Origin: Methylococcales bacterium
GTDB lineage: Bacteria; Pseudomonadota; Gammaproteobacteria; Methylococcales; UBA1147
Reading direction: 5' to 3'
DNA length: 64,000 bases
NCBI GenBank assembly: GCA_041748915.1
Contig: JBGTCG010000076.1
Coordinates: 205-64,204, forward strand
The notes below the pieces were generated by a model. It worked only from the letters and a program-made list of their open reading frames with translations, did not search any database and was not told the DNA's origin. Below, piece by piece: positions 13,366-49,208 of this stretch. The position numbers and the translations under genes are program-made. Numbering within the stretch: position 1 is the stretch's first letter; each line of letters begins with the position of its first letter.

Positions 13366-13416
13366 AAATTGAAAACGCACGGGATCCTTCGGCAAACGGA
13401 ATTTCCAGGGAAACAT

Positions 13417-13540: not shown

Positions 13541-13568
13541 CGAACCGGGAACCACATCGGTATCGCGC

Positions 13569-15215
13569 TTATGCCCTGCTTGCCTTGAAACGGCGCATCA
13601 ATCCGTTGGTCGATGAATCATGCAGTTCGGGACGCAATTCATTGTCCATCTCCTGGAGCAAGCCGCTCGCAAGCTGTTTCCCGAGCTCGACGCCCCACTG
13701 GTCAAAGGAATTGATTCCCCAGAGGATTCCCTGGGTGAAAATCTTGTGTTCATAAAGGGCGATCAAGGCCCCGAGATTACGCGGACTGAGTTTGTCGATC
13801 AGCAGCATGTTGCTCGGCTTGTTGCCGGGGAAAGTCTTATGCCTGGCCAAAAGATGCACGTCCTCGGCGTTGGCATTCGAGTAACGCAATTCTTCGAGGG
13901 CCTGGCCGGCGGTTTTGCCTTTCATCAAAGCCTCGGCCTGCGCGAAACAGTTGGCAATCAGAATCTTATGGTGCAATTCAAGCCCCGATTCATCTTCCAG
14001 TACCGCGATAAAATCGACCGGAACCAGATCGCTGCCCTGATGAATCAACTGGTAAAAAGCGTGTTGGCCGTTGGTGCCGGGTTCTCCCCACAATACGGGC
14101 CCTGTTTTTGTGGCGACCTGTCGTCCTTCGCGGCCTACGGTTTTTCCGTTGCTTTCCATATCGCATTGCTGCAGATAAGCCGGGAAACGATGCAAGCGCT
14201 GATCGTAGGGCAATACCGCATAGGTTTCCGCTCCGATAAAATTCCGGTTCCAGATGCCGATCAGCGCGAGGATGACCGGCAGATTTTCCTCGAACCGCGC
14301 ATTCCGGAAATGTTCGTCCATCGCATTAGCGCCCATCAGCAGGCACTCGAACTTTTCCATGCCCACGCTCAAAGCGACCGATAAGCCAATTGCCGACCAC
14401 AACGAATAACGCCCGCCGACCCAGTCCCAGAATTCGAACATATTGACGGGATCGATTCCGAAGGTCTCGACTTCGGCCTGATTGGTCGAAACCGCTACGA
14501 AGTGCCTCGCGATGTTGGCCGACGATCCGGCTTTTTCCAGAAACCATTGCCGCGCCGAACGCGCGTTGGTCATCGTTTCCTGGGTGGTGAATGTTTTCGA
14601 GGAAACCACAAACAATGTGCTCTCGTGATCCAAATCCTTCAGGGTCCTGCACAGATCCGTACCGTCGATATTGGCCACGAAATGACTTCGGATGGTATCA
14701 ACGGCTTGTCCGGCCAGCGCTTCGACCACCATTCGTGGTCCAAGGTCAGAGCCTCCGATTCCGATATTGACGGCATCGGTAATGGGTCTACCGGTACATC
14801 CTCGCCATGATCCGGAATGGATCGCTTCGACAAAACGTCCCATTTTTTCGAACACGGCCAGGATTGCGGGCATAATATCCGTACCGTCGACCACGAGCGG
14901 GGAGTCCGACCGCCGCCGCAACGCGGTATGCAGCACCGCCCGGTCCTCGGTCAGATTGATTTTTTCGCCGGTAAACATCCGTTCTATCCAGGCGTCCAAC
15001 CGCATCTGGCGAGCGAGGTCACACAACAGTTTGAGGGTTTCCGACGATATCCGGTTTTTCGAAAAATCGAGGAATATCCCAGCCGCTTCCAGGGAAAAAC
15101 GCGAGCATCGGCCTGGATCATCGCGAAACATCTGGCGCATGTCCGGCTCGCCGGTTTGTTCATGATGGGCCTTTAACGCAGACCAGGAGTCCGTTTGAAC
15201 CGGATTGGAAGTCAT
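13569..15215 (-). CDS. pgi: Glucose-6-phosphate isomerase
   Basis: 548 aa. NIGIGGSDLGP and SKTFTTQET motifs of the PGI family. Confidence 0.97.
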   Translation of the reverse strand: MTSNPVQTDSWSALKAHHEQTGEPDMRQMFRDDPGRCSRFSLEAAGIFLDFSKNRISSETLKLLCDLARQMRLDAWIERMFTGEKINLTEDRAVLHTALRRRSDSPLVVDGTDIMPAILAVFEKMGRFVEAIHSGSWRGCTGRPITDAVNIGIGGSDLGPRMVVEALAGQAVDTIRSHFVANIDGTDLCRTLKDLDHESTLFVVSSKTFTTQETMTNARSARQWFLEKAGSSANIARHFVAVSTNQAEVETFGIDPVNMFEFWDWVGGRYSLWSAIGLSVALSVGMEKFECLLMGANAMDEHFRNARFEENLPVILALIGIWNRNFIGAETYAVLPYDQRLHRFPAYLQQCDMESNGKTVGREGRQVATKTGPVLWGEPGTNGQHAFYQLIHQGSDLVPVDFIAVLEDESGLELHHKILIANCFAQAEALMKGKTAGQALEELRYSNANAEDVHLLARHKTFPGNKPSNMLLIDKLSPRNLGALIALYEHKIFTQGILWGINSFDQWGVELGKQLASGLLQEMDNELRPELHDSSTNGLMRRFKASRA

Positions 15216-15314
15216 CGTGCCTTGAAAGTTATCCTCTTTATCGAATCGATGTTCGCTGGCGCGAAAACCTGGCGTTCAAGTCCAAAACAGAACGCCGCGA
15301 AAGAAATACGGGAA

Positions 15315-15695
15315 TCAGGCTGCCTGAACCGGAATCTCTCGATTGGTCCGGACTATCTGATTCTTTTCGTTCACATACACGAGTTGGGGTTTATATCCTG
15401 CTAACTCGCTCTGACTCAGCCCGATATAAGAGCAAACAATCAACAAATCGCCGGGCGCGGCGAGATGCGCGGCTGCGCCATTGACCGAAACGATGCCGGA
15501 ATCCTTCTCCGCCCGAATCGCATAGGTCGTAAATCGATTGCCGTTGGTGATATTGTAAATCTGAATCTGCTCGTATTCGCGAATTCCGGATCGCTCGAGA
15601 AGGGCACTGTCAATTGCACAGGAGCCTTCATACTCCAATTCCGAATGCGTAACGGAAACCCTGTGCAGCTTGGCTTTCAGCATCGTTGTTTGCAT
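15315..15695 (-). CDS. panD: Aspartate 1-decarboxylase
   Basis: [29 protein letters not shown].. parallels E. coli Pan[30 protein letters not shown] (the self-processing G-S site is present). Start chosen at the 8th codon of ORF 15315-15716. Confidence 0.95.
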
Positions 15696-15737
15696 AAGTT
15701 CAAAAGGTATGGGCAAATTTTGACTGGAAATTATGCA

Positions 15738-15902
15738 TCAAAGCCACCGCGCAGGCAACTTGATAGCCGATTCCTGGACCGTTTCACGGAGCGATGCGGA
15801 CTTCGATTTTTTAATCAGATCAATAGCTTTCGCGATAGCGACGAAACCGTCGGGCGGGAACGGTATAACCATCAGCTTAGCTTGAAAAGGCCCGCTCGTC
15901 AT
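15738..15902 (-). CDS. Possible small ORF (54 aa) between panC and panD
   Basis: ATG..TGA reading MTSGPFQAKLMVIPFPPDGFVAIAKAIDLIKKSKSASLRETVQESAIKLPARWL. It fills the otherwise empty 220-nt panC-panD spacer on the operon strand. No family recognised. Confidence 0.25.
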   Translation of the reverse strand: MTSGPFQAKLMVIPFPPDGFVAIAKAIDLIKKSKSASLRETVQESAIKLPARWL

Positions 15903-15918
15903 CCCGGCTGCGCCAGGT

Positions 15919-16791
15919 TCATTCTTCGACCCGATTTATCGAAACCTGCCCGGCACAAACGGCTTGGTTATCGATCAGGCGCGCATTTCCGAGCCAGGCC
16001 GCGGCCAGAATGATCAACTCGCGATCGCCGGGGCCAGGCGGCTGCAAATCCTGGATCCTGCCGACCGAAAAATAGTCGGGTCTGAAGTCATATTTCCTCA
16101 GTTTGATCATATTTCGCTGTTCCAGATCGCCGAATTCCGCGGTTCCCGCGCGGATCTCCGCGGCCGCTTCACACAGTAGCCGGTACAGATTCGGAGCAAG
16201 CCGCCTTTCCTGGTCCGACAAATAGCGGTTCCTGGAACTCATCGCCAATCCGTCGGGTTCCCGCACGGTTTCGACCGATTTGATCAGCACGGGAACATTG
16301 AGGTCGGCGGTCATCTTCCGAACAATCATCAATTGCTGAAAATCCTTTTGTCCAAATACCGCCACGTCCGGTTGCACCATGTTGAAAAATTTCAGGACGA
16401 TCGTGGCGACTCCCGAAAAATGGCCGGGCCGATGTTTACCGCATAACCGGTCGGACAACCCTGGAACAGTCAAATGGGTAAATGGTTTCACCGGATAGAC
16501 TTCTTCGGTCGGGGGCGCGAAAATCAGATCCGCAGGTTTCGTTGCAAGCCTGCGAGCATCTTCATCGAAGGTCCGCGGATAATCAGCAAAATCCTCTCCT
16601 TCGCCGAATTGAGCCGGATTGACAAAAATGCTGACGACCACACGTTCGCCATTTCGCGCCGCTTCGTCAACCAGTTTAAGGTGACCGTCATGCAGATTCC
16701 CCATGGTCGGCACGAGCGCGATCCGCTCGGCCGCCTTTCGCCATTCCGCCACCCGGATACGCAGCGATTCGATCGTTTCAATGATTTCCAT
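15919..16791 (-). CDS. panC: Pantoate--beta-alanine ligase
   Basis: MEIIETIESLR..IALVPTMGNLHDGH.. aligns with the E. coli PanC N-terminus. Start taken at the 13th codon of ORF 15919-16827. Confidence 0.95.
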   Translation of the reverse strand: MEIIETIESLRIRVAEWRKAAERIALVPTMGNLHDGHLKLVDEAARNGERVVVSIFVNPAQFGEGEDFADYPRTFDEDARRLATKPADLIFAPPTEEVYPVKPFTHLTVPGLSDRLCGKHRPGHFSGVATIVLKFFNMVQPDVAVFGQKDFQQLMIVRKMTADLNVPVLIKSVETVREPDGLAMSSRNRYLSDQERRLAPNLYRLLCEAAAEIRAGTAEFGDLEQRNMIKLRKYDFRPDYFSVGRIQDLQPPGPGDRELIILAAAWLGNARLIDNQAVCAGQVSINRVEE

Positions 16792-16844
16792 GACCATCCC
16801 CGGTAATCCGCCATCCTGGACAACCAACTCCTGGTCTGCGAAAA

Positions 16845-17660
16845 CTATTCCAGACCATGCTCCGGACCCGGAAACTCGCTGGACCGTACCGCTCTGACGA
16901 AGGATTTCACGGCCGCACGGATTCCGCTTTTGCCGGCCAGAAAGTCTTTCGCGAACTTCGGGGTTCGCTGCAAGCCGACACCGAGCAGGTCATACAAAAC
17001 CAAAACCTGTCCGTCGCATGAATTACCGGCTCCGATTCCGATCGTCGGGATTTTGATATTCCGGGTGATTTCCGCGGCCAGATCTCGCGGGATACATTCG
17101 AGAACCAGCAAACCCGCTCCGGCTTCTTCGAGGATCCGCGCGTCCCCGACCATTTGATCCGCCGCGGCACGGTCTTTCCCCTGAACCCGGAAGCCGCCGA
17201 GCTGATGGATGGACTGCGGCGTCAAGCCCAGATGCGCGCAAACCGGGATTCCCTGTCCGGTCAGATGCCGGACGATCTCGGCAAAACGCCGGCCACCCTC
17301 CAGCTTGACCATCCGGGCGTTGCCTTCACGCATCAGACGTGCGGCATTGAAGGCGGCCTGATCCCGGTTCGCGTAACTCATAAACGGCATGTCCGTGACT
17401 AGCCAGGCGCGTTGGATTCCTTTCGCAACACACCGCGAGTGATAGACCATTTCATCCACGGTCACCGAGAGAGTGGTTTCCTCGCCTTTGATGACCATAC
17501 CCAGCGAATCGCCAACCAAAACGATGTCGACGCCCTCTTCGTCCAACACGTGGCTGAATACCGCATCATAAGCGGTCAGGCAGGTGATTTTTTCACCGTG
17601 CTGTTTCATTTTTAGCAGGTCCGGTAGGGTCAAAGCCCTGCTTTTGTTATTCGCCCCCAT
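16845..17660 (-). CDS. panB: 3-methyl-2-oxobutanoate hydroxymethyltransferase
   Basis: 271 aa. LTAYDA and VGDSLGMV motifs. In the panB-panC-panD order. Confidence 0.95.
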   Translation of the reverse strand: MGANNKSRALTLPDLLKMKQHGEKITCLTAYDAVFSHVLDEEGVDIVLVGDSLGMVIKGEETTLSVTVDEMVYHSRCVAKGIQRAWLVTDMPFMSYANRDQAAFNAARLMREGNARMVKLEGGRRFAEIVRHLTGQGIPVCAHLGLTPQSIHQLGGFRVQGKDRAAADQMVGDARILEEAGAGLLVLECIPRDLAAEITRNIKIPTIGIGAGNSCDGQVLVLYDLLGVGLQRTPKFAKDFLAGKSGIRAAVKSFVRAVRSSEFPGPEHGLE

Positions 17661-20873: not shown

Positions 20874-20908
20874 TACGGAATCGGAAAATATAGTTTTCCG
20901 ATTCCGTA
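20874..20908. repeat. Perfect 15-bp inverted repeat tacggaatcggaaaa-tatag-ttttccgattccgta
   Basis: Read directly from the sequence. Sits 2 nt upstream of leader element copy A. Confidence 0.9.
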
Positions 20909-20910
20909 CA

Positions 20911-20990
20911 TTTTCAATAGCGAAAGCCATTGAAAATGCCGGCTCGTCGTGAGCCGGACCAGTTTTCGTTCGTTTCCGAACGGAAACTGG
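20911..20990 (+). promoter_or_regulatory. Three-hairpin leader element, family 2, copy A (35 nt before the ATG at 21026)
   Basis: tttcaat-N10-attgaaa; ccggctc-gtcgt-gagccgg; ccagttttcgttcg-tttc-cgaacggaaactgg. About 80% identical by eye to 38061-38139. Confidence 0.6.
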
Positions 20991-28815: not shown

Positions 28816-29139
28816 GCCGGAATTCTTTTGCGCGCCTTTTCGATGCGCCGTGACGAATTGCGAATGGATCGCCACCGCGGTCATGATTGAGCCGGTCTCG
28901 CGAATAATCCAAGGCGATATTCGGAGTTAAAATCCCGGATGTCGCCTTTATGCTTCTGCCATACCCGAGCCGGTGGAAGCTGGGCTCCAAACTTTTTCCG
29001 GGCAGTTGGGTGAAGCGGCAGTCGGAACCGGCTATCCCACCTGAAGTCCTGATCAAGACGCGGAGTCGTTGTGCTGCCTGGACTCAAAGAACGCGATATT
29101 CACCTGCCTACCGTGTTGATCGATAACTTAGGGAAACGC

Positions 29140-29290
29140 TGAATTAATCCATCCTGGATTTCTCAGCGGTCGTCAACCCTGCCAATGCGATTTGGGTTTG
29201 CCTCACAAAATCAGACGCTTACAGCGTCCTATTTTGGCAGTGCATCCCTGCACTGCGGGAAGCTCTGATTAAATCAGGGCTTCCTTAGGC
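29140..29290 (+). repeat. Structured intergenic repeat, family 1, copy 2
   Basis: tgaattaatccatcctggatttctcagcgg..ccaatgcgatttggg..cacaaaatca..attttggcagtgcatccctgcactgcgggaagctctgattaaatcagggcttcc. Hairpins gcagtgca-tccc-tgcactgc and ggaagctctgat-taa-atcagggcttcc. Confidence 0.9.
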
Positions 29291-34310: not shown

Positions 34311-35363
34311 CTAAAGGACTCCGCGTTGCATCTGATCGCGCTCTATGGACTGAAACAGCGCATTGAAATTTCCTTCCCCGAAACCCTGGTTTCCTTTACG
34401 CTGGATCACTTCGAAAAAGATCGGACCGATTACCGTGGACGTGAAAATTTGCAGCAGTAATCCATGGTCCTGGGCGGTTCCTCCATCGATCAGAATTCGA
34501 TTTTCCCGTAGTCTTGCGATATCTTCGCCGTGTTCAGTAATCCGTTCATCGAGATGCTCGTAATAGGTGTCGAGTACGTCCATGAACTTGATGCCGTTGG
34601 ACCGCATTGCTTCAACCGTGGAATAGATATCGTCGGTCGCCATCGCAATGTGCTGGATACCCTCGCCCCGATAAGCGTCCAGGTATTCCTGGATCTGTGA
34701 TTTTGCGTCGGAAGGCTCGTTGATCGGAATCCGGATTTTGCCGCACGGACTGGTCATCGCGCGCGACTTCAGGCCGGTGGTCTCGCCATGAATATCGAAA
34801 TAGCGGATCTCATGGAAATTGAACAGTCGTTTATAAAACTGGGCCCAGTCATTCATCCTTCCTTTGCGGACATTATGGGTCAGATGGTCGATTTCCTTGA
34901 GGCCCACTCCGGCCGGTCTCAGTTCGACGCCTTCGAACGGGATAAAATCGACATCGTAAATGGAGCGATCACCGTAACGATCGATCAGATAAATCAGACT
35001 GCGGCCGATTCCACGGATCGCCGGTATATTGAGCTCCATCGGCCGGGCATCGCCGAGATGCGGCTCCCCGCCGAGCTTCAGCGCGCGTTCATAGCTCTCG
35101 GCTGCATTCTTGACCCGAATTCCGAAGGCGCAAATCGACGCGCCGTGGACCTTCGCGAAAGCCTGGGCGAAACTGCTGGGTTCATGGTTGATTACGAAAT
35201 TGATCCCGCCCTGGCGATACAAGACGACATCTTTCGAACGGTGGCGCGCGATCGCGACAAACCCGAGTTGTGAAAACAACTGTTCCAGGGCCCTCGTATC
35301 CGGAGCGGTGTACTCGACGAACTCGAATCCGTCGGTTCCCATTGGATTCGGGATGTTTACCAT
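34311..35363 (-). CDS. hppD: 4-hydroxyphenylpyruvate dioxygenase
   Basis: 350 aa. GFEFVEY, GIQHIAMATDDI and FFEVIQRKG motifs characteristic of HPPD. Confidence 0.9.
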   Translation of the reverse strand: MVNIPNPMGTDGFEFVEYTAPDTRALEQLFSQLGFVAIARHRSKDVVLYRQGGINFVINHEPSSFAQAFAKVHGASICAFGIRVKNAAESYERALKLGGEPHLGDARPMELNIPAIRGIGRSLIYLIDRYGDRSIYDVDFIPFEGVELRPAGVGLKEIDHLTHNVRKGRMNDWAQFYKRLFNFHEIRYFDIHGETTGLKSRAMTSPCGKIRIPINEPSDAKSQIQEYLDAYRGEGIQHIAMATDDIYSTVEAMRSNGIKFMDVLDTYYEHLDERITEHGEDIARLRENRILIDGGTAQDHGLLLQIFTSTVIGPIFFEVIQRKGNQGFGEGNFNALFQSIERDQMQRGVL

Positions 35364-35489
35364 ACTGATACTCCATCCATATTCATTAACGGCGCTTCAC
35401 GGAACGAAGCGCGCCCACAGTCCCGGTGACTGTAAGATTGCACACTGCAAGTGATCGGTATTGGACGCTCACGGAAATCGCTTTCAATC

Positions 35490-35790
35490 CGCAGTTTCGA
35501 ATGTTACCCGAAGCGATGGGATAAGTTCATTCTGCCATAGACCTTCGTCGGGGCATGAAGGTTCAGATACGGCGCAACGGACAAGACCGCCCGGCTCCAG
35601 CAGCGACACTGCTGTACCGCGGTTTCGAGCCAATCAGGTTTGGACGCGCGCCGCGCGACGCCGGGGTCATCACGTCCAGGATTTGCGGCATTTGCGGTTC
35701 GGCCCACCTTTATTCCTTCGCGCGGCTGCGCCGGGCATCCAGGTTGCTTCGGCTAATGCGCGCGACCCTGGGCGAACTCATCGGACGGGT
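35490..35790 (+). pseudogene. Relic of a [NiFe]-hydrogenase large-subunit N-terminus (multiple frameshifts)
   Basis: The frame of ORF 35555 reads KVQIRRNGQD..ATLLYRGFEPIRFGRAPRDAGVITSRICGICGSAH. This matches the L1 pattern RGxE..L.GR.P.DA......RICG(I/V)C...H. An ..SSGHEG piece (EGH-like) lies in another frame just upstream, and a GIQVASANAR (GI.VP.NAR-like) piece lies in another frame downstream. Nothing further of the ~500-aa protein is present. Confidence 0.5.
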
Positions 35791-36095
35791 CGATGAACCG
35801 GTCTTCCGGTCCGTCAACAGGGAACGACGGACGGCGAAGGGTATGGATTGGTCACGGCGGCGCGCGGCGCATTGCGACATTGGGTTCGACTGCGCGACGG
35901 TGTTATCGAACAATGTCAGGTCGTCACGCCGACGGCATACCGGCGAGCCAAACGGATTATTCGAAAGTGCGAATAATCCGCACCGGTTTCGTACGGCCGC
36001 GTGCGCTGGCCGGAAATTTTGCCGTTCCGGGACGAAATTGCTTAACCGCGTTTACTTCAAATATAATCCAGAGTTTATACAATGTAACTATATCG

Positions 36096-36896
36096 ATGGT
36101 GTTTTGGGTCCTGCAGCGAGTCGTCGCCTGTTACTCCCTGCTCTTATACTCAGCCGTATTTATCGGGATCGATTACGGTGCAGCCGTAAAGCTGATTTCC
36201 GGGCCTCTGCTATGGGTGTTGATCATCCTGCAGATCGCGCGGCATGCGGCTCTCGGCATGACCTTGGGTTTCCACCGCTTTTATTCGCATGCAGCGTATA
36301 AGACATCCCGCCTTTACGAGTTGTTTATTGCCTATTGCTGTGCGGCTTCAAACCAGGCCGCGATGACCTGGTGGGCCGGCACGCATCGATATCATCACGT
36401 CCATTGCGACGACGATCAGGATCCGCATTCGCCGGTAACCCATTCCTTTCTTTATGCCTGGCTCGGCTGGGGATACGATCCGAAACATGCGGACAAGGTA
36501 ATTCAGCTCCGTTACCCTGAAATCCGCTGGCTGGATCGGTGGTGTTTCCTGATACCCTGGACGGAGTGGATCCTTTTTTGGCTATTCTCCGGATCGCTCG
36601 CATTCGCAACCCTCGCGTCCATGATCCCGGCCGGGTTATCACCGGTCGGCACGCTGTTTTTCAATTGTATCTCGCATGGCGGCAAACCGGATGAAAAAGG
36701 CTGCACGGCGCGGCGATATTATCAGCTTTCGGCCATTCTGCTGGGCGAACACGATCACCGGGATCATCATGTCTATCCGAACAAAGCCAAGCGTCCGGGC
36801 CCTGATTTACCCTACTGGCTGATATTATGGCCTATGGCAAGACTCGGATTGATTTGGGATCTGAAAAATGATCATACCGATACGCGGCGCGGGTAA
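36096..36896 (+). CDS. Membrane fatty-acid (acyl-CoA/acyl-lipid) desaturase family protein
   Basis: Three His boxes: HRFYSH, HRYHHVHCD and HDHRDHH. Hydrophobic N-terminus. Start taken at the internal ATG 36096 of ORF 35793-36896. Confidence 0.8.
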   Translation: MVFWVLQRVVACYSLLLYSAVFIGIDYGAAVKLISGPLLWVLIILQIARHAALGMTLGFHRFYSHAAYKTSRLYELFIAYCCAASNQAAMTWWAGTHRYHHVHCDDDQDPHSPVTHSFLYAWLGWGYDPKHADKVIQLRYPEIRWLDRWCFLIPWTEWILFWLFSGSLAFATLASMIPAGLSPVGTLFFNCISHGGKPDEKGCTARRYYQLSAILLGEHDHRDHHVYPNKAKRPGPDLPYWLILWPMARLGLIWDLKNDHTDTRRG

Positions 36897-36934
36897 ATCC
36901 GGCGCTGACCACCCTGCCCTTGACCAGGCAAACC

Positions 36935-37077
36935 TGAATAAGTCCATCCTGGATTTCTCAACGGCCAGCAACCTCAACAACGATTTGGGAGTGCCTTACA
37001 AACTCATATGAAAGCGTAGATTTTGGCAGCGCATCCCTTACCTGCCGGAAGCTCTAATTTAATAAGAGCTTCCCTGG
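36935..37077 (+). repeat. Structured intergenic repeat, family 1, copy 3
   Basis: ctgaataagtccatcctggatttctcaacgg..acaacgatttggg..tacaaactca..attttggcagcgcatccc..ggaagctct-aatttaata-agagcttcc (perfect 9-bp terminal hairpin). Starts 39 nt after the desaturase stop. Confidence 0.9.
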
Positions 37078-37101
37078 AGCCTTCCGCACATCCTGAAGGA
37101 A

Positions 37102-37824
37102 TCAGACTGGAGGAAAATAGGCCAAGGTATTGCCAAAATGCCGGGATATCCGATAACCACGGTCCCTGAGTGTCATCTCCCACTCCCCCCGCCACCGTTT
37201 GTCGATATATTGATGTTCATAAAGCAGGATCGCAGGGGCCATGGTCTCAAAATCGATCTGTTCCAGAATTTCATAATCGTAGCCCTCCGTATCCACGAGC
37301 AGCAGGTCAAGTTTTTTGATGTGGTGCATTTCAAGCAGATCAGTCAGCGATATGCACTCCATTTGCTCCTTCACGACATAGCGCGCAAGATCGGGTACTG
37401 CCCATGTGTGGGTCATCAAAATATCAAGATCAAAGGTTCCGAGGCCTTTACACCACTCTGGCAGGAACGGAATATTATCCCGGATTCGATAAAAATCGCG
37501 AACTTCCCTGCGATCCGAGATCGCGACATTTTCAAATATCAGTCGATCATTGGCGTTGTAATTCTGTTTCAAGCGTTCAAAACAGGTCCGAACCGGCTCC
37601 ACCAGCACCCCGCGCCAGTTCGATTGCTGTACAAACGGATAAATTGGATCATAAATGACGCCGTCGTTGGCGCCAATCTGTACAAAGAACAAATCGGTTC
37701 CTGCTGCAACCGCCTGCGAAAGCACGCGCTCCAGGGTGAACCATTTCGGCATGCGGCACAAGCGGTCGAAAGCCTTAACGAAAACCATTCGGAGTCTATA
37801 AGCGGGACTGGGAAATTGATCCAT
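37102..37824 (-). CDS. FkbM-family methyltransferase
   Basis: FFVQIGANDG motif and FkbM-like core. Start taken at the 41st codon (MDQFPSP..) of ORF 37102-37944. Confidence 0.75.
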   Translation of the reverse strand: MDQFPSPAYRLRMVFVKAFDRLCRMPKWFTLERVLSQAVAAGTDLFFVQIGANDGVIYDPIYPFVQQSNWRGVLVEPVRTCFERLKQNYNANDRLIFENVAISDRREVRDFYRIRDNIPFLPEWCKGLGTFDLDILMTHTWAVPDLARYVVKEQMECISLTDLLEMHHIKKLDLLLVDTEGYDYEILEQIDFETMAPAILLYEHQYIDKRWRGEWEMTLRDRGYRISRHFGNTLAYFPPV

Positions 37825-38060
37825 GGCGCATTTTTTTTTACGGGTGCACGGCAGGTTTACACTATCACAGATTACAGCGATCGGCGGAACAAACAGACAC
37901 CTTCCGTCCCGCAATCTTATTCGCGCATGAGATGGATGCATCATTGAACCGGCAGAAGTCCGCGGAAAATGCGAGTGAGCGCAGCATACCGATTGAAATA
38001 GTACACTGAATTTCCTATCCTAGTGGCTGACCGGAAAGCGCGATTTCCCGGTTCCTCGCA

Positions 38061-38139
38061 ATTTCAATGATCTAATCTATTGAAATGCCGGCTCGTCCTG
38101 AGCCGGAATAGTTTTCGCTCGTTTCCGAAAGAAAACTAT
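38061..38139 (+). promoter_or_regulatory. Three-hairpin leader element, family 2, copy B (38 nt before the mprF-like ATG)
   Basis: tttcaat-N10-attgaaa; ccggctc-gtcct-gagccgg; atagttttcgctcg-tttc-cgaaagaaaactat. Contains an 8-codon uORF, ATG 38085..TAG 38111 (MPARPEPE). Confidence 0.6.
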
Positions 38140-38177
38140 CCTAGCTTCACAGGAACACCAGGATACTGGACCCCAAT

Positions 38178-40754
38178 ATGTCTAACCAGCTCGGCAAAAA
38201 ACTGATCGCTTATATCGGGACTTTCTTGAGCGTCGTGATCGTTTGCATCGCACTTTGGGTCATGTACGACACACTGCACGCGATCAGGCTTTCCGATGTT
38301 ATTGCAAGTCTTCAGAAGCTTTCTTCTTTTTACATCCTGCTCGGCTTCGCAATCACCGCGTTAAGTTATCTCACGGTGACCGGTTACGATGTTGTTGCGC
38401 TGCACCACATCAAGCGCCGGGTTCCGTACTCGCGCGCTGCGCTCTCGGCGTTTCTGGCGTCCACTTTCGGCAACAACATCGGTTTCGCGATTCTAACCGG
38501 AACTTCGATTCGCTACCGAATCTACTCGTATGCCGGCTTGTCCGCGCTGGATGTCGCAGGAGTCAGTTCGATGTGCGCATTGACGACGATTCTCGGGATG
38601 AGTTTTGTGTTTGCGACGTCCATGCTCCTGCAATCGGCTGATATCCCAAGCACCGGCATCAAGATTCCGATTGGACTGATGAAAACCATCGGAGCCTTGC
38701 TCCTGTTTGCGATCGGCGCGTATATCCTGGTCGCGGCCTACAAACCCTTGACTTTAAGAACCGCCAACTGGTCACTCAAACTACCATCAGCCAAAACCAC
38801 GTTAGCTCAAATCCTGCTCGCAACCACCAACCTGACCCTGATCGCTACACTGATCTATGTTCTGCTTCCAGCGGAAACCAACACCAGTTATATCGCGTTC
38901 CTGAGCGTCTTCGCAATCGCATTGATCGCCGGAAGCGCCAGTAATGTCCCCGGAGGAATCGGCGTATTCGAATCGGTCATTTTGATCGGACTTCCCGAAA
39001 TTCCTCCGGCGGCGTTACTCGGATCCATTCTGTTGTTCCGCTGTATTTACTATTTGAGCCCTCTCGGGATTGCGGCCACCCTGCTTCTCTACCACGAATC
39101 CAACCGACAAAGAAAACGGATCGAGGAACTTCACGTCTCGGTTCTGGATGTTCTCGACGAGATTGGTCCGCATGTGATGGCCATGATCATCATGCTCGCG
39201 GGAGTGATCCTGCTGTTTTCCAGTTCGATTCCGGTCGGCTTTAATCGCAATCTGTCTCCGGTCTGGGTCCCGCTGTTTCTGGTCGAAGTTTCCCATTTAA
39301 CCGGGGCCGCCGCGGGCATCGGACTGTTACTACTGGCACGCGGAATTTCGCGGCGCCTGGCTTCTTGCTTTGATCTGGCGGTTAACCTTCTGATCCTCGG
39401 CATGGTGACTTCGCTGCTGAAAGGGTTCGGCTTTCGCGAAGCAATTGTTCTGGGATCGATTCTCGGCCTGCTCTGGTCCACTAGACACGAATTTTACCGG
39501 AAAGCCTCTTTGTTCGACGAAGGTCTCCCCGCCGAATGGGTTTCGTTGTTATCGATCATCCTCGCCGTAACCATCTGGCTCGGCCTCTTTTCCTTCAAAG
39601 ACACGCCTTATTCAGCATCCCTCTGGTGGGACTTTTCATACGAAAACGACTATTCACGATTCCTGCGTTCATTGGTGGTCGTATTCGGCATCAGCGGCAT
39701 CGCAACTTATATCAATTTGTTACGGCCGGACCCGCTCCCCGGCCTTCCAGAAGATTTGATTTTGTCCAAAATTCGCAAAATTCTGGCATCGGAGCCGAAC
39801 CCAAGGGCCAACCTGGTTCTGTTCGGTGACAAACGCATCTTGTTCAACCGGTCCGAGACCGCGTTCATTATGTATCAGATCCAGAGCAAAAGCTGGGTCG
39901 TACTCGGAGACCCGGTCGGTCCGAAAGAGGAGCATCGGGACTTAATCTGGTCATTCCGGGGACTCTGCGACCGTTACGGCGCCTGGCCGGTATTCTATAT
40001 GGTCGATGAAAGTGAACTGCCGTTCTTTAACGATCTCGAACTTTCGATTGAACGTATGGGCGACGAAGCCGTGATGCCTCTGGAAAACTTCTCACTGGAC
40101 GGCGCGCTCCGAACGGCACTGCTCAGCGAATATAACCAAGTCAAAACGCTCGGGGCCCGTCTCGATGTCGTGGAAGGAGATGCGCTTGACCGGATCATGC
40201 CGGAATTAAAGGCGATCTCAGATAATTGGCTGAACGCCCACAATACTGAGGAAATGGGTTTTTCGCGAGGTTTTTTCGACCAGTATTTGATCCGGAATTT
40301 TCCATGCGCCGTGATCAGAATGAACGACCGGATTGTCGCGTTCGCAGTGATCTGGACAACTCCCAGCCGGATAGAGGTGGGATTGGATCTGATACGGTAT
40401 CATCAGGACGCGCCCAAACTGGTGACGGATTATCTGATGATCGAAACCATGTGGTGGGGAAAAAAGATGGGGTATCGCTGGTTCAACCTCGGCATCGCGC
40501 CGCTTCCGGGGCTCAAAGATCATCCGCTCGCCCCACTCTGGCACCGGATCGGAGTATTGATGTACCGGCCCAGCGATACGAACCATTCGCTTGACGAAAT
40601 CCGTACGGAAGAAGAAAAATACAATCCGGTCTGGCGCCCGAAATATATCATAGGGCCGAGCGGGATCAGAACGCCTCGAATAATCCGTGATATCAGCCGG
40701 CTGATTTCGCGACGTAACGTTCACTTACGGGCCAACGATTCCGGCAACACCTGA
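38178..40754 (+). CDS. mprF: MprF-like bifunctional aminoacyl-phosphatidylglycerol flippase/synthase
   Basis: 858 aa. Long multi-TM N-terminal half. C-terminal aminoacyl-PG synthase-like domain (..EEMGFSRGFF..VAFAVIW..DLIRYHQDAP..YRWFNLGIAPL). Substrate unknown. Confidence 0.8.
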   Translation: MSNQLGKKLIAYIGTFLSVVIVCIALWVMYDTLHAIRLSDVIASLQKLSSFYILLGFAITALSYLTVTGYDVVALHHIKRRVPYSRAALSAFLASTFGNNIGFAILTGTSIRYRIYSYAGLSALDVAGVSSMCALTTILGMSFVFATSMLLQSADIPSTGIKIPIGLMKTIGALLLFAIGAYILVAAYKPLTLRTANWSLKLPSAKTTLAQILLATTNLTLIATLIYVLLPAETNTSYIAFLSVFAIALIAGSASNVPGGIGVFESVILIGLPEIPPAALLGSILLFRCIYYLSPLGIAATLLLYHESNRQRKRIEELHVSVLDVLDEIGPHVMAMIIMLAGVILLFSSSIPVGFNRNLSPVWVPLFLVEVSHLTGAAAGIGLLLLARGISRRLASCFDLAVNLLILGMVTSLLKGFGFREAIVLGSILGLLWSTRHEFYRKASLFDEGLPAEWVSLLSIILAVTIWLGLFSFKDTPYSASLWWDFSYENDYSRFLRSLVVVFGISGIATYINLLRPDPLPGLPEDLILSKIRKILASEPNPRANLVLFGDKRILFNRSETAFIMYQIQSKSWVVLGDPVGPKEEHRDLIWSFRGLCDRYGAWPVFYMVDESELPFFNDLELSIERMGDEAVMPLENFSLDGALRTALLSEYNQVKTLGARLDVVEGDALDRIMPELKAISDNWLNAHNTEEMGFSRGFFDQYLIRNFPCAVIRMNDRIVAFAVIWTTPSRIEVGLDLIRYHQDAPKLVTDYLMIETMWWGKKMGYRWFNLGIAPLPGLKDHPLAPLWHRIGVLMYRPSDTNHSLDEIRTEEEKYNPVWRPKYIIGPSGIRTPRIIRDISRLISRRNVHLRANDSGNT

Positions 40755-40919
40755 CCAGAGGGTGGTTGGTTGAAGACTCGTTTACCCCCCTCTTACGGCC
40801 GGAACGCGGTCCTGGTCTGCTGCGCTCCCGCGCCATCCGCAGGAAACCGGATAAATCTTTTAGAATTACTCTAATTTTGTTACATTGCATGTAAATAATA
40901 TTGAATAAATGTGTCGACA

Positions 40920-42062
40920 ATGAAAAAAATAAAAATCGCGATCATCGGGATAGGCAACTGTGCAAGTTCGTTGATTCAAGGTATTCATTACTACCGGAAC
41001 AAGGACAAGAGGAGCGCAACCGGATTGATGCATTGGACCATCAACGGTTACACACCATCGGACATTGAGGTCGTCGCGGCGTTTGATATCGACGCGCGCA
41101 AGGCCGGCAGGGATGTATCGAAAGCGATGTTCGCGAAACCCAACTGCACGACGGTGTTTTGCGCGGATATTCCGGACTCCGGCGTAACCGTACAGATGGG
41201 AAGAATACTCGACGGTTTTTCGGAACACATGAAAGAATTTGAGGATAATTCCACGTTCCTCGTATCGAGTCTTGCGGAACCCGAAAAAATTCATGTCGTC
41301 GACGTTCTCAAGAATTCCGGCGCGGAAATCCTGCTGAATTACCTGCCGGTAGGCTCCGAACAGGCAACCCGCTTTTATGCGGAGTGCGCGCTCGAAGCCG
41401 GGGTTGGATTCATCAACAACATACCGGTATTTATTGCGAGTGACCCGATCTGGGCAAAACGATTCGAGCAGGCGGGCTTGCCGGTGATCGGCGACGACAT
41501 TAAAGCGCAGTTGGGCGCCACGATTACCCACCGCATGCTTACCGATTTATTCAAAAAGCGCGGGGTGACTCTGGAACGAACCTATCAACTGAATACCGGT
41601 GGTAATACCGATTTCTTGAACATGCTGAACCGGCACCGGCTCGCCTCGAAAAAAACGTCCAAAACCGAGGCCGTGCAATCCGTGGCATCGGAGCGGCTGG
41701 ACCAAAACAACATTCACGTCGGCCCCAGCGATTATGTTCCGTGGCAGAAAGATAATAAGGTATGCTTTATCCGCATGGAGGGGAACTTATTCGGGAATGT
41801 TCCGATGAATTTGGAACTCCGGCTTTCCGTCGAAGACTCGCCGAATTCGGCCGGGGTCGCGATCGACGCGATCCGCTGCGCGAAACTTGCGCTGGACCGG
41901 CATATTGGCGGTCCCCTGGTCGGCCCCGCGGCATATTTCTGCAAGCACCCGCCCAAACAATTTACGGATGAAGAAGCGTTGAAATTGCTCGAAGATTACA
42001 TCGGGGAGGAAGCGCCAACCAATGTATCGTCGTTATTTCCGGATCGAAAACACACCGTATGA
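40920..42062 (+). CDS. ino1: Inositol-3-phosphate (myo-inositol-1-phosphate) synthase, short prokaryotic type
   Basis: MKKIKIAIIGIGNCASSLIQGIHYY (NAD-binding N-terminus), ..NYLPVGSE.., ..QLNTGGNTDFLN.., ..SKKTSKTE.. as in the bacterial/archaeal MIPS family. Confidence 0.85.
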   Translation: MKKIKIAIIGIGNCASSLIQGIHYYRNKDKRSATGLMHWTINGYTPSDIEVVAAFDIDARKAGRDVSKAMFAKPNCTTVFCADIPDSGVTVQMGRILDGFSEHMKEFEDNSTFLVSSLAEPEKIHVVDVLKNSGAEILLNYLPVGSEQATRFYAECALEAGVGFINNIPVFIASDPIWAKRFEQAGLPVIGDDIKAQLGATITHRMLTDLFKKRGVTLERTYQLNTGGNTDFLNMLNRHRLASKKTSKTEAVQSVASERLDQNNIHVGPSDYVPWQKDNKVCFIRMEGNLFGNVPMNLELRLSVEDSPNSAGVAIDAIRCAKLALDRHIGGPLVGPAAYFCKHPPKQFTDEEALKLLEDYIGEEAPTNVSSLFPDRKHTV

Positions 42063-42219
42063 ACCAATTCATACTTCGCGCATACCGCACCCAATCGTTC
42101 CACCGAAGCCTGTGAGCGCTTAAGCTTGATCAGGCGATTCATTCAGGAAACCTGAATCCGGACCGGACTGCCGCCCGTAAAGTGTCGCTCTGCCGGAAAG
42201 CATTAATCGGTACTCGTCC

Positions 42220-43011
42220 ATGCCCGGCAATTCGATAGTGAAAGTACCGATCTTCTATTACCATTCCATAGGTAATCACGGCCCGGAGACTTTAGCGGTA
42301 CGTGAATTCCGGCGTCACCTGGAACTGATCCGCGCACATTATTTCAAGCCAATCACTTTTTCCGAATTGCTTTCGCTGGACCCGGACGATCGCGGCCGAT
42401 ACGTTGTACTATCCTTCGATGACGGACTGCTCGACAACTTCGAGAATGCCGCGCCGATTCTGAACGACTTCGGTTACCGGGCTACTTTTTTTGTAATTCC
42501 CGGTTTCGATCACATCATCCGCTGGGTCAACCCGAAAACCCGCGCGTGGAGCGAATCCCGGAACGCAGGTTTCACCCTCCCTTTTCCTGGTATGCAGAAT
42601 CATCATCGCCGGCAACTGCTCGACTCCGGAATGGAAATCGGTTGCCACACCATGAATCATCCGAAATTGACCGAGGTCCACGCACATCAGTTACGCGTCG
42701 AAATTACGGATTCAAAAGCTTTGCTCGAAGATCAACTGGGTTCGCCGGTCACGACATTCTGCTATCCGAAAGGCCGGTACAACAAAAATGTTCTCGATCA
42801 CCTCAGAAATGCCGGCTATTCGGGTGCGTGTACGACCATGCCGGCCTATTATGACCGCGCTACTCCTAAATACGAATGCGGCCGGTTTCTAATTGAGAAC
42901 CCCGTCTTGTTTAATAAAATACTCGAGTGGGCCTCACCTTCAAGTCAATGGACCGGGCCGCTGTGCCAACTGCTGCGTATCCCCTTAAAGCTGAAAAATA
43001 CTTATTTTTAA
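42220..43011 (+). CDS. Polysaccharide deacetylase (CE4 / NodB homology) family protein
   Basis: LSFDDGLLDN (TFDDG-type metal/catalytic motif) and CHTMNHP (H..H motif). 263 aa, no obvious signal peptide. Confidence 0.8.
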   Translation: MPGNSIVKVPIFYYHSIGNHGPETLAVREFRRHLELIRAHYFKPITFSELLSLDPDDRGRYVVLSFDDGLLDNFENAAPILNDFGYRATFFVIPGFDHIIRWVNPKTRAWSESRNAGFTLPFPGMQNHHRRQLLDSGMEIGCHTMNHPKLTEVHAHQLRVEITDSKALLEDQLGSPVTTFCYPKGRYNKNVLDHLRNAGYSGACTTMPAYYDRATPKYECGRFLIENPVLFNKILEWASPSSQWTGPLCQLLRIPLKLKNTYF

Positions 43012-43241
43012 CGCCCCCGGCCGGTTCAGCCCCGAGTGGTTGGCCTTCCTGCGTTGATATATACTCATTACACCCCCGATGGGGGTATTCCGGTAGTTGC
43101 CGAAGGGCCGTAAAATGATTGATAGCAACAACTTATCAGCGTACCGGCCAAATCCTCGGCCAGTGGCCAAGGCATTTTGCAGGCTCCGAAATACAAAAAA
43201 CGAAAAACACATATAGATAAATGTCTTATCAGGGGGACCGA

Positions 43242-44882
43242 ATGCAAAAGATTTGGTTACGGCAGTATCCTGCGGGTACACCCGATGAAATCAGTCCCGA
43301 TGTCTACCCGTCACTGATCGCGTTGTTCGAAGAAAGTGTTGCCAGGTTCGGCGTTCTTCCCGCGTTCACTCAAGGAAAAACCACTCTCTCCTATTCCGAT
43401 CTTGACCGTCTTTCGCGGAATTTCGCGGCCTTTATGCAAAAAAAAGGAAACATCAAAGCCCGGGATTGCGTGGCTATCATGCTGCCGAATTGCCTGTATA
43501 TACCCTTGGCGCTCTTCGGCGCGCTACGGGCAGGCGCGCGAATTACCAATGTCAACCCACTTTACACTTCGGGCGAACTACGACAACAACTTTCTGACGC
43601 GAAGGCGAAGGCGATCATTATAGATGCCGATTCCCTGCCGGCGTTGTTGCCGATTTTGCCGGATACCGAGATCCGGATCGTGGTGACCGCCTGCTCCGGT
43701 GATGCCGCCGTGGCGAGTGTCCTCGCAACGTCACCGGTCGCGGATTCGAAACAACCGGTGGACTTCGATACCGCGCTCGCACTCGGCGGAGATCTTGAAC
43801 TTGAACCCGCAGCAACGGCTGGCAAAGACATCGCCTTCCTTCAATATACGGGCGGGACAACCGGTGTTTCAAAAGGCGCGGCGCTGACGCACCGCAATCT
43901 GATCGCCAATATCATTCAGTTTTCCGCGATGATGGGTCCCAAGATTTCTGCCGGCCGGGAAATCGTGGTTACAGCCTTACCTCTGCACCATATCTTTGCA
44001 CTGACGATCAACTGCCTGACTTTTTTTTGCCACGGCGGCCGCAATGTATTCATTAGGGACCCACGGAATTTAGCAGGCTTGATTGCCGGCCTGGGCCAAT
44101 GGCCGTTCTCGGTATTCACCGGGGTCAATACTCTTTTTAATAACCTGCTGAATCATACTGAATTTAACAAGCTGGATTTTTCGGAGCTCAAAATATGCAT
44201 CGGCGGCGGCGCCGCGGTTCAGGAGTCCGTCGGCCGACGGTGGCACGAGGTCACGGGCTGCCGTCTGTTACAGGGGTACGGTCTGTCGGAAACCTCGCCG
44301 CTCCTCACCATCACCCCAGGTGACTCCGACACATTCTCCGGGAGCATCGGCGTGCCCGTTCCGTCCACTGAAATTTCGATCCGCGATGAAACCGGCGGCG
44401 AGGTTCCGGTTGGAAAAGTCGGGGAATTGTGCGCCCGTGGGCCGCAAGTCATGCAGGGTTATTGGCGGAATAACTCCGCCAGCCGCAATGCGATGACCCA
44501 CGATGGTTATTTCAAAACCGGTGACATCGCCAGAATGGATGAAAACGGATGTTTTTATATCGTCGACAGGAAAAAAGACATGATCCTGGTCTCCGGGTTT
44601 AATGTCTTTCCGAACGAAATCGAAGAAGTCCTATCCAGGCATGAAGGGATATTCGAATGCGCCTGTATCGGCGTGACCGATAAACATTCCGGGGAAGCCG
44701 TCAAGCTGTTCGTGGTCGCAAAAGCCGGTGTTCAAGTGACTTGCGCGGACATCCGGGATTACTGTCGCCAGCGCTTGGCCGCCTACAAAATTCCCAGGCA
44801 TGTGGAATTCGTCGATGAATTGCCGAAAACGGCGGTGGGCAAAATCTTGCGCCGGGAACTGCGGAAGCGGGCCGGCCATTAG
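43242..44882 (+). CDS. fadD: Long-chain-fatty-acid--CoA ligase
   Basis: MQKIWLRQYPAGTPDEI.. (FadD-like N-terminus), YTGGTTGVSKG, GELCARGPQVMQGYW, ..GKILRRELR. RBS agggggac before the internal ATG 43242. Confidence 0.9.
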   Translation: MQKIWLRQYPAGTPDEISPDVYPSLIALFEESVARFGVLPAFTQGKTTLSYSDLDRLSRNFAAFMQKKGNIKARDCVAIMLPNCLYIPLALFGALRAGARITNVNPLYTSGELRQQLSDAKAKAIIIDADSLPALLPILPDTEIRIVVTACSGDAAVASVLATSPVADSKQPVDFDTALALGGDLELEPAATAGKDIAFLQYTGGTTGVSKGAALTHRNLIANIIQFSAMMGPKISAGREIVVTALPLHHIFALTINCLTFFCHGGRNVFIRDPRNLAGLIAGLGQWPFSVFTGVNTLFNNLLNHTEFNKLDFSELKICIGGGAAVQESVGRRWHEVTGCRLLQGYGLSETSPLLTITPGDSDTFSGSIGVPVPSTEISIRDETGGEVPVGKVGELCARGPQVMQGYWRNNSASRNAMTHDGYFKTGDIARMDENGCFYIVDRKKDMILVSGFNVFPNEIEEVLSRHEGIFECACIGVTDKHSGEAVKLFVVAKAGVQVTCADIRDYCRQRLAAYKIPRHVEFVDELPKTAVGKILRRELRKRAGH

Positions 44883-45343
44883 TCCGCCGCCGAAAACCAA
44901 CAATCACTACTCAGGTCTCCTCAACCACGGTCCGATCCAATTTCCAGGAATCGGCGCCAGCCGGTCCTCGAATCGAACGGTTCCGTTATTCTCGTGCCGG
45001 CGCCGGCGTCTCATCCTGTAAACGAGCTCCGGCGACCGGCAGAAATCGGCGCTGCAATCGGCTAAATGATTCACGGAAAGGCGACTGGACGCCCTTTCCG
45101 TAGGATTGATATAATTACGCTTTTTACTAATCTTTTGCGCAACAGTTTAATCGGCGGGAAGCAGGGACGTTCCGGAAATGTCGCACCCGGAAACCGGCAG
45201 CCTCTGAAATTAGAGTGTTTTATCCGGAACTCGGACTGGCCTTGCAATCTGGCCACTCAAGATCGATTCCCGGAACCCAGCCCCAGATCACCGGAAACGC
45301 GCCGGTTGCGGCAATTAAAATTTTACACTGGAGGAAAAATACA

Positions 45344-49054: not shown

Positions 49055-49208
49055 CTGGGATCCGTAAGGACGCCCTGACTAGTTCAGAGCTTCCCGTAGC
49101 GCAGCGATGCGCTGTCAAAGTCGATCGATATAAGCGGTTGATTTTGTACGGCAGCACCAAATCGCATTGGGTGCTGCCGACTGAGAAATCCACGATGGAT
49201 TTATTCAA
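49055..49208 (-). repeat. Structured intergenic repeat, family 1, copy 4 (reverse orientation)
   Basis: The reverse complement reads tgaataaatccatcgtggatttctcagtcggcagcacc-caatgcgattt-ggtgctgcc..acaaaatca..tttgacagcgcatcgctgcgctacgggaagctctga.. with a perfect 9-bp first hairpin. Confidence 0.9.

Follow-up and report, generated by a model that had tools for sequence, protein, structure and literature searches.

A conserved inositol-3-phosphate synthase and deacetylase module in uncultured Methylococcales and its possible role in a hexosaminyl-inositol phospholipid pathway

We analyzed a 64,000-nucleotide stretch of DNA (the window) from an uncultured Methylococcales bacterium (assembly GCA_041748915.1, contig JBGTCG010000076.1, positions 205 to 64,204), in which genes for a desaturase, an FkbM methyltransferase, a full-length MprF, a myo-inositol-3-phosphate synthase (MIPS), and a de-N-acetylase of the CE4 family lie side by side. 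These genes are the core of a gene set that is spread over several loci and restricted to one group of uncultured Methylococcales. Judging from the families and neighborhoods of its members, this multi-locus set most likely makes an inositol phospholipid, part of which would be converted to a hexosaminyl-inositol phospholipid resembling glucosaminyl phosphatidylinositol (GlcN-PI); we hold this reading with about even confidence.

The genome of the window (G000) was compared with 41 relatives, and synteny was taken from 12 fetched loci of the Methylococcales families f1, f3, f4, and f6; one genome, G004 (loci L007, L020, L030, and L132), is unpublished and merely duplicates the results of other genomes. 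MIPS homologues were found in 15 of the relatives (families f1, f3, f4, and f6, the f6 copy being broken) and in 21 of 151 genomes of the order. The CE4 gene was located directly downstream of the MIPS gene, on the same strand and with a spacer of 36 to 157 nucleotides (nt), in all 12 loci, which makes MIPS-CE4 the tightest conserved pair of all members. The wider arrangement, in which fkbM is divergent from mprF-MIPS-CE4, recurred in f1 and f4: mprF was upstream of MIPS in five of the six assessable f1 genomes (G000, G001, G004, G005, and G006) and in all four f4 genomes. The remaining f1 genome, G007, has fkbM divergent from MIPS-CE4 and mprF elsewhere, and in the f3 genomes MIPS-CE4 stands alone at the site. 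The desaturase gene lies beside fkbM in f1 and f6, and in f3 it belongs to an operon with a patatin-like lipase gene and a gene for a protein resembling phosphatidylinositol phosphate (PIP) synthase (PIPS). FkbM orthologues, two paralogues in each genome, were present in 14 of 14 MIPS-carrying relatives and in none of 26 MIPS-negative genomes. Desaturase orthologues (67 to 85% identical) were present in 12 of the 14, none being found in G005 and G018, and MIPS-negative genomes had only paralogues with 36 to 38% identity. Likewise, MprF orthologues of at least 51% identity were restricted to MIPS-positive families among the relatives; the MIPS-negative genome G033 has a 37% homologue. Linkage of these genes beyond chance is supported by the data, and the conserved module consists of the desaturase, FkbM, MprF, MIPS, and CE4.

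An earlier interpretation of this DNA, made from its letters and translations (the sequence-only reading), had looked to the conservation of an mprF-ino1-CE4-fadD neighborhood, ino1 being the MIPS gene. The mprF-MIPS-CE4 part of that neighborhood does recur, but fadD is syntenic nowhere else: it is beside CE4 in none of the 12 related loci, and G001, which belongs to the same genus, has gap-pyk straight after CE4. Because it is never adjacent in related loci, fadD was placed outside the module and rejected as a pathway member. A patatin-like phospholipase gene lies inside the cluster in f1 genus g3 and in f3 (L015:3563-4312 and L038:2054-2800), and a tblastn search found no homologue of it in the window genome. 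At L025:8752-9312 in the f6 genome G012, fragments of MIPS covering residues ~4 to 119 and ~312 to 366 are left, and residues ~120 to 311 are lost.

The sequence-only reading had seen neither a CDP-alcohol phosphatidyltransferase nor a glycosyltransferase that would explain the use of inositol, and indeed no CDP-alcohol transferase or GT4 enzyme is encoded on the window contig. The genome as a whole encodes five CDP-alcohol transferases in open frames of 208 to 320 amino acids (aa) (open reading frames [ORFs] of 190 to 312 aa). Two of them match PgsA and PssA above the cut-offs, and the three examined with Pfam have no nucleotidyltransferase (NTP-transferase) domain. Our candidate for the use of inositol phosphate is the PIPS-like protein encoded on contig C260 (Table 1), which, like its orthologues, contains the complete DxxDGxxARx8GxxxDxxxD motif (residues 66 to 91). 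Its four top NCBIfam models are all of enzymes that use inositol phosphate, namely, archaetidylinositol phosphate (AIP) synthase (100 bits), PIP synthase (65 bits), BT_1523 (54 bits), and DIPPS (45 bits); PgsA, PssA, and Pcs reached ~25 bits. The best genuine matches in the Protein Data Bank (PDB) were AF2299, Renibacterium PIPS (RsPIPS), and Mycobacterium tuberculosis PgsA1.

Orthologues of the C260 protein (E ≤ 1e-58) were found in 12 of the 14 MIPS-carrying relatives, the exceptions being G002 (87% complete) and G007 (90% complete), and in 0 of the 26 MIPS-negative genomes. The clade is lineage restricted: identities are at least 50% among Methylococcales-type sequences and fall to 34% beyond them. 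Furthermore, in each of the four f4 genomes the PIPS-like gene converges on fkbM, with a few tens of bases between the two, and in both f3 genomes it lies just downstream of the desaturase gene; in G017, a gene for a 248-aa patatin-like lipase stands between the latter two, and the end of this lipase gene shares 8 bp with the start of the PIPS-like gene. The sequence-only reading had left the choice between an inositol-containing lipid and a solute. Since the PIPS-like gene co-occurs with MIPS and is found within the cluster in sister families, a lipid is the better reading. It had also considered that inositol-utilizing enzymes might be encoded elsewhere with a conventional role: one such enzyme does exist off the locus, but it has no conventional independent role and belongs to the same co-inherited set, whose linkage varies.

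A putative glycosyltransferase of the set, GT4a (G000:C123:19384-20553), is the window genome's best homologue of the GT4 enzymes linked to CE4 in Legionella and Rokubacteria. It ends an operon with three paralogous 10-transmembrane-segment proteins of the drug/metabolite transporter (DMT/EamA) type, one of which has a weak ArnE match. This DMT-GT4a operon is kept in f1, f3, f4, and f6; in G006 it adjoins CE4 in convergent orientation, and it is within 2 kb of CE4 in G005 and within 6 kb in G007. GT4a orthologues (at least 288 bits) occurred in MIPS-carrying genomes only, other genomes having paralogues of at most 138 bits; they were missed in G002 and G003, the two least complete f1 metagenome-assembled genomes (MAGs). 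The nearest relatives of GT4a are enzymes that use UDP-N-acetylhexosamine (UDP-HexNAc), i.e., PglJ (130 bits), BshA (108 bits), MshA (76 bits), and GpgS (56 bits), and GT4a gave no match to the PIGA Pfam domain.

A further block, on contig C88, encodes a second FkbM, an FAD oxidoreductase, a DUF6629 protein, a DUF374 protein, and an Mgs/GpgS-like glycosyltransferase (GT4b), and blocks of this type adjoin the desaturase gene in six relatives. The case for GT4b as a strict member was weakened by the occurrence of its orthologues in the MIPS-negative families f7 and f5 as well, and the C88 block is therefore regarded as a looser associate. Beside the GT4b-DUF374 pair on C88 (L147:6899-9761), we observed genes for an ECF sigma factor, a ChrR-type cupin anti-sigma factor, and an ATP-grasp protein resembling L-amino-acid ligases.

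No signal peptide or hydrophobic segment was found in the CE4 protein. Ten orthologues all keep D67 and D68 of the Asp-Asp motif, H143 and H147 of the His-x3-His motif, and an N-terminal histidine, H15. The nearest folds to its AlphaFold model (pLDDT 85) were PplD, IcaB, PgaB, and BpsB (Foldseek E values of 1e-15 to 1e-11). PplD de-N-acetylates the N-acetylglucosamine (GlcNAc) linkage unit of streptococcal rhamnopolysaccharides (PMC8807736), and the other three are de-N-acetylases of poly-N-acetylglucosamine (PNAG). From these fold neighbors, a GlcNAc de-N-acetylase that acts in the cytoplasm would be the natural reading of the modeled protein.

In a scan of one genome per species, CE4 homologues with ~45 to 53% identity were detected in Legionella, Rokubacteria/Methylomirabilota, and a few other MAGs. 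In the annotated Legionella and Rokubacteria loci they follow a GT4 gene directly or at a distance of one gene, and the Legionella cluster encodes, 6 to 8 kb away, a CDP-alcohol transferase of 211 aa whose match profile is likewise AIPS > PIPS > DIPPS. No MIPS gene was found beside CE4 homologues in 66 loci outside the Methylococcales. The cluster of Legionella bozemanae and Legionella santicrucis (L052 and L056, ~7900 to 17100) comprises genes for GT4, a 265-aa protein, the CE4 homologue, a GNAT-like protein, a fused acyl-AMP ligase/carrier/aminotransferase (AONS-like), and a sulfatase-family membrane protein, with the PIPS/AIPS-like CDP-alcohol transferase gene in convergent orientation.

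A stronger argument than co-occurrence comes from linkage: the pairs of members that are physically joined differ from family to family. We propose a scheme in which the family assignments of the enzymes are established and their substrates, the order of the steps, and the topology are inferred. MIPS, by its family membership, would convert glucose-6-phosphate to inositol-3-phosphate, which the PIPS-like enzyme may join to CDP-diacylglycerol to form PIP. A phosphatase would then release phosphatidylinositol (PI), the single PgpA of the genome being a candidate by analogy with Bacteroides BT_1525. GT4a would take HexNAc from a UDP-sugar and attach it to the inositol head group, and CE4, as its fold, motifs, and neighborhood suggest, would remove the acetyl group to leave a cationic amino sugar. 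The DMT trio and/or the membrane domain of MprF might bring the product to the outer leaflet. In parallel, MprF probably aminoacylates phosphatidylglycerol (PG), and the whole island would then make the membrane surface less negatively charged. As accessory and more speculative steps, FkbM might O-methylate the head group, and the desaturase, together with the patatin lipase in some relatives, might tailor the acyl chains. The sequence-only reading had lacked this amino-sugar logic of a glycosyltransferase and a deacetylase.

Table 1. Features of the cluster in the window and the PIP synthase-like gene on contig C260 (positions are those of the window unless a contig is named)
Feature	Position	Strand	Evidence or remark
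Desaturase-like membrane protein, 266 aa	36096-36896	+	His boxes HRFYSH, HRYHH, HDHRDHH; 3 hydrophobic segments
Dispersed repeat resembling a miniature inverted-repeat transposable element (MITE), desaturase-fkbM spacer	36897-37101		131 further BLAST matches in genome, 70-82% identity
FkbM-family S-adenosylmethionine (SAM) methyltransferase	37102-37944	-	PF05050 69 bits, TIGR01444 59 bits
fkbM-mprF spacer with ~110-bp dispersed repeat ("family-2 leader")	37945-38177		13 other genome copies, 78-89% identity
Full-length MprF	38178-40754	+	NF033480, PF09924, PF03706
MIPS, short bacterial/archaeal type	40911-42062	+	PF01658 122 bits (cut-off 27)
Cytoplasmic CE4 (NodB-fold) de-N-acetylase	42220-43011	+	PF01522 89 bits
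FadD-type long-chain acyl-CoA ligase	43221-44882	+	PF00501, PF13193; NCBIfam FadD-type models 640-660 bits
PIPS-like CDP-alcohol transferase, 190 aa	G000:C260:1703-2275	-	PF01066 61 bits

The six genes that the sequence-only reading had named in the window were all confirmed, with their family assignments, by the ORFs and profile matches (Table 1), and its spacers of 157 to 230 nt fit the measured 156, 157, and 209 nt for mprF-MIPS, MIPS-CE4, and CE4-fadD, respectively. MIPS aligned over residues 1 to 355 of 355 with TIGR03450 at 450 bits and did not reach the actinobacterial equivalog cut-off of 638; this full-length but sub-cut-off score identifies it as a MIPS and not as a mycothiol-type equivalog. 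The fkbM gene is convergent with the desaturase gene and divergent from mprF, and the true start of FkbM is likely Met41 (position 37824), because the alignments of its orthologues begin at about residue 40. For the desaturase, there was no Pfam match, and NCBIfam DesA was the single supporting model (34 to 36 bits, a weak score). The GC content of the cluster and its distant partner loci is 47 to 52%, against 54.5% for the genome.

Two spacers of the cluster contain dispersed repeats. The one between the desaturase gene and fkbM has no functional part in the pathway; its repeat family also matches the window at ~13405 to 13538, ~29130 to 29284, and ~49068 to 49207. As for the repeat upstream of mprF, one of its other copies lies at ~20900 to 20990 of the window (C76:21098-21192), and no Rfam match was obtained within 35300 to 45300. 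A leader or riboswitch upstream of mprF was ruled out by the dispersed nature of this repeat together with the lack of an Rfam match. Thus, the "family-2 leader element" ascribed to mprF by the sequence-only reading exists as DNA, but it is a mobile dispersed repeat and not a gene-specific leader.

The predicted chemistry resembles that of two known systems, gpgSDF of Pseudomonas aeruginosa, which makes GlcN-PG (PMC12713373), and hexSDF of Clostridioides difficile, which makes an aminohexosyl glycolipid (PMC10128005); in both, a glycosyltransferase, a deacetylase, and an MprF-type flippase yield amino-sugar lipids (PMC12713373, PMC10128005). As in these systems, a GT4-type synthase would add HexNAc to a lipid and a cytoplasmic deacetylase would bare the amine, with an MprF-type membrane domain alongside. 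They give an anionic or neutral lipid a cationic head group, and the same logic is predicted here. In the window, the CE4 gene is near the MprF membrane domain, and GT4a is on another contig but abuts or is near CE4 in G006, G005, and G007. Unlike in gpgSDF and hexSDF, the deacetylase is tied here to MIPS and a PIPS-like gene, and the predicted acceptor is therefore an inositol lipid. Besides, GpgD is a COG3233-type deacetylase, whereas the deacetylase here belongs to PF01522; MprF is full length with an aminoacyl-transferase domain, three DMT proteins accompany the glycosyltransferase, and the genes are split over several loci.

The combination of MIPS with a small CDP-alcohol phosphatidyltransferase is shared with the bacterial systems that make PI via PIP, i.e., Mycobacterium PgsA1, Renibacterium PIPS, and Bacteroides BT_1523/BT_1525/BT_1526 (PMC9246714, PMC6506517). 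In the Bacteroides inositol-lipid cluster, an "LPG synthase" homologue (BT_1521) adjoins MIPS (PMC9246714), just as an MprF-family gene stands beside MIPS here. Unlike those systems, the present cluster contains no dedicated PgpA-like PIP phosphatase and has CE4, GT4, DMT, and FkbM members added.

The initiation of glycosylphosphatidylinositol (GPI) synthesis consists of GlcNAc transfer to PI by PIG-A, which is a GT4 enzyme, de-N-acetylation by PIG-L, and flipping. The route predicted here would likewise convert PI to GlcNAc-PI and this to GlcN-PI at the cytoplasmic face before the product is translocated, as in GPI initiation and in the formation of archaeal glucosaminyl archaetidylinositol. 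The deacetylase, however, has the CE4 fold and not that of LmbE/PIG-L, GT4a lacks a PIGA match, and no mannosyltransferases, ethanolamine-phosphate transferases, or transamidase are present here. The resemblance to GPI initiation is thus one of function by analogy and not of membership.

The sequence-only reading had suggested a genome-wide search for PI/PIP synthase or IPCT/DIPPS genes. This search yielded the PIPS-like gene on C260 but no IPCT/DIPPS gene in the window genome, and the di-myo-inositol-phosphate (DIP) solute route was accordingly ruled out for this genome. When the fused IPCT/DIPPS of G093, a genome of another Methylococcales family, was used as a query, its IPCT half matched only generic nucleotidyltransferases of the window genome at 23 to 25% and its DIPPS half matched nothing. 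In G093 (L158:7305-10278), a MIPS gene whose product is 74% identical to the window MIPS is followed 4 nt later by the fused IPCT/DIPPS gene (175 bits to PDB 4mnd) and then by a 201-aa ORF. The DIP cassette thus shares a closely related MIPS; here, MIPS is followed by CE4, and the CDP-alcohol transferase is a stand-alone protein of 190 aa.

Two other CDP-alcohol transferase loci of the window genome were noted. On contig C193 (L028:2023-9138), genes for a 312-aa CDP-alcohol transferase and a methyltransferase are divergent from those for a GT4 enzyme and a stand-alone UPF0104 protein of the MprF-flippase type; they adjoin pterin-type genes (GTP cyclohydrolase II/RibD_C and PTPS) and could be a second lipid module or a pterin-glycoside module. 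On contig C220 (L027:4842-6235), the gene for an endonuclease/exonuclease/phosphatase-family protein overlaps the start of that for a 249-aa CDP-alcohol transferase, and the two may be a phosphatase-transferase pair.

Among the alternatives to a hexosaminyl-inositol phospholipid, the one that survives best, which we regard as unlikely but of some weight, is that the genes serve independent envelope functions and are merely co-inherited and loosely clustered. MprF would then be an ordinary lysyl- or alanyl-PG synthase-flippase, MIPS and the PIPS-like enzyme would make plain PI, and GT4a, CE4, and the DMT proteins would make another amino-sugar product, such as GlcN-PG (as gpgSD does), a polysaccharide, or a linkage unit; the adjacency would come from shared regulation (membrane-charge stress) or from history. 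This accords with an MprF that passes the curated MprF equivalog cut-off, with the action of gpgSDF on PG and not PI, with a Legionella CE4/GT4 cluster in which MIPS was not detected, and with modules that are unlinked in the window genome and shuffled in gene order between families; besides, the relatives are not independent samples. The tightest adjacency, MIPS-CE4 (12 of 12), would nevertheless be hard to explain if CE4 were unrelated to inositol. The PIPS-like gene also recurs near GT4-CE4 in an unrelated order, and each family links a different pair of members, as would be expected from one functional set.

The window MprF scored 757.5 bits against the NCBIfam model bifunc_MprF (NF033480; cut-off 600; aligned 13 to 845). 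It has at least 12 hydrophobic segments, a C-terminal aminoacyl-tRNA-dependent transferase domain (PF09924, 245 bits), and an N-terminal flippase-type domain (PF03706, 37.2 bits; cut-off 33.4). A canonical mprF-virJ(acvB) operon was found on contig C38 (L148:496-3953; LPG_synthase_C, 310 bits; VirJ, 245 bits), the two genes overlapping by 4 bp and mprF being cut by the contig end. The C38 MprF is only 35% identical to the window MprF. The genome thus has two mprF paralogues, of which the one in the window lacks a hydrolase partner, although a second MprF in the genome proves nothing about the substrate of the one in the window. Most MIPS-positive relatives carry the cluster-type MprF only. From these comparisons, ordinary aminoacyl-PG synthesis beside a second charge-modifying pathway appears more likely than an inositol-containing acceptor.

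In a bolder form of the scheme, these Methylococcales would make a GlcN-PI-type lipid, whose head group is that of the GPI-anchor core, with non-orthologous enzymes, CE4 taking the part of PIG-L and a BshA/PglJ-like GT4 that of PIG-A, and the MprF paralogue of the cluster would itself flip or further aminoacylate the inositol glycolipid. We consider this form doubtful, more so than independent envelope functions; if true, the lipid class would be new, and so would the acceptor of MprF.

The use (or flipping) of PI or hexosaminyl-PI instead of PG by the window MprF, giving an aminoacylated inositol lipid, seems improbable when taken by itself. With a canonical mprF-virJ operon on C38 whose MprF is so distant, the window copy could be specialized; mprF is directly upstream of MIPS in f1 and f4, and GpgF and HexF are MprF-flippase-type proteins. 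MprF homologues are known to aminoacylate other lipids, giving Lys-glucosyl-diacylglycerol in Streptococcus agalactiae and Ala-diacylglycerol in Corynebacterium. The window protein scores, however, as a bona fide MprF equivalog, and MIPS-CE4 is kept without an adjacent mprF in G007, f3, and f6. Moreover, as the sole type in most MIPS-positive relatives, the cluster-type MprF is probably their general aminoacyl-PG synthase.

There is as little to recommend a soluble product, either a GlcN-inositol pseudo-disaccharide of the mycothiol/bacillithiol kind or a methylated inositol osmolyte, for which GT4a would act like MshA on inositol-3-phosphate, CE4 would stand in for MshB, the DMT proteins would export, and FkbM would methylate. 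BshA and MshA are among the best solved or curated relatives of GT4a, the best match of MIPS is the "mycothiol INO1" model, and DMT proteins are usually small-molecule transporters, but GT4a is far below the cut-offs of MshA (76 versus 462 bits) and BshA (108 versus 274 bits) and, unlike in the mycothiol and bacillithiol pathways, no MshA/BshA equivalog score is reached and the deacetylase is a CE4 and not an LmbE enzyme. The co-occurring CDP-alcohol transferase is a membrane protein and in f3 is encoded in one operon with the desaturase and patatin lipase, MprF is a membrane-lipid enzyme, the nearest folds to CE4 act on polymer- or lipid-linked GlcNAc, and no cysteine ligase was identified, although no search aimed at cysteine ligases was made.

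Several points weigh against a hexosaminyl-inositol phospholipid as the product. The support is genomic inference throughout, and all member genomes are MAGs. Within the window genome the five loci of the set are unlinked, and a scan of consensus promoters and terminators for operon mapping gave counts at the level of shuffled sequence, which are uninformative. The MIPS-positive families are possibly one clade, so that the co-occurrence may go back to a single evolutionary event. The C260 protein misses the curated cut-offs (NF045883, 65 versus 170 bits; NF040950, 100 versus 180; NF052561, 54 versus 350) and for this reason was not filed as a PIPS or AIPS member. Likewise, both GT4a and GT4b are far below all curated NCBIfam cut-offs, including that of the GlcNAc-PG synthase equivalog (NF053787, cut-off 480; GT4a, 56 bits; GT4b, 115 bits), and GT4a could have PG, diacylglycerol, or inositol phosphate as its acceptor instead of PI. 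The PIP phosphatase step is without an assigned enzyme. The f6 genome G012 keeps CE4, fkbM, and the desaturase gene and, elsewhere, intact copies of the PIPS-like gene, GT4a, and mprF, with an internally deleted MIPS. Finally, with the query used, MIPS was undetected in the Legionella genomes that have the CE4/GT4/PIPS-like cluster, implying that the CE4 family is not intrinsically tied to de novo inositol. As far as gene content indicates, the Legionella cluster supports the GT4/CE4/PIPS-like association yet shows no strict need for de novo inositol.

Bacteria rarely contain inositol lipids. Hexosaminyl-PI is known from eukaryotes, as the first committed intermediate of GPI-anchor synthesis, and from archaea, as a lipid. 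We searched the literature on methanotroph inositol lipids, bacterial GlcN-PI, and MIPS together with MprF and met nothing relevant beyond the Bacteroides, gpgSDF, and hexSDF papers; no report of bacterial hexosaminyl-PI or of this gene combination was found there. The single parts are all of known kinds, and it is the combination and the predicted hexosaminyl-PI that were not met in the searched literature. If our favored reading is true, bacteria would have arrived at this head-group chemistry by convergence, with enzymes of other folds, and the newly described principle of gpgSDF and hexSDF would be extended to inositol lipids. It would also assign a role to a subfamily of CE4 enzymes that some Legionella species have as well, and it would provide a testable candidate for the tuning of membrane surface charge in uncultured relatives of methanotrophs.

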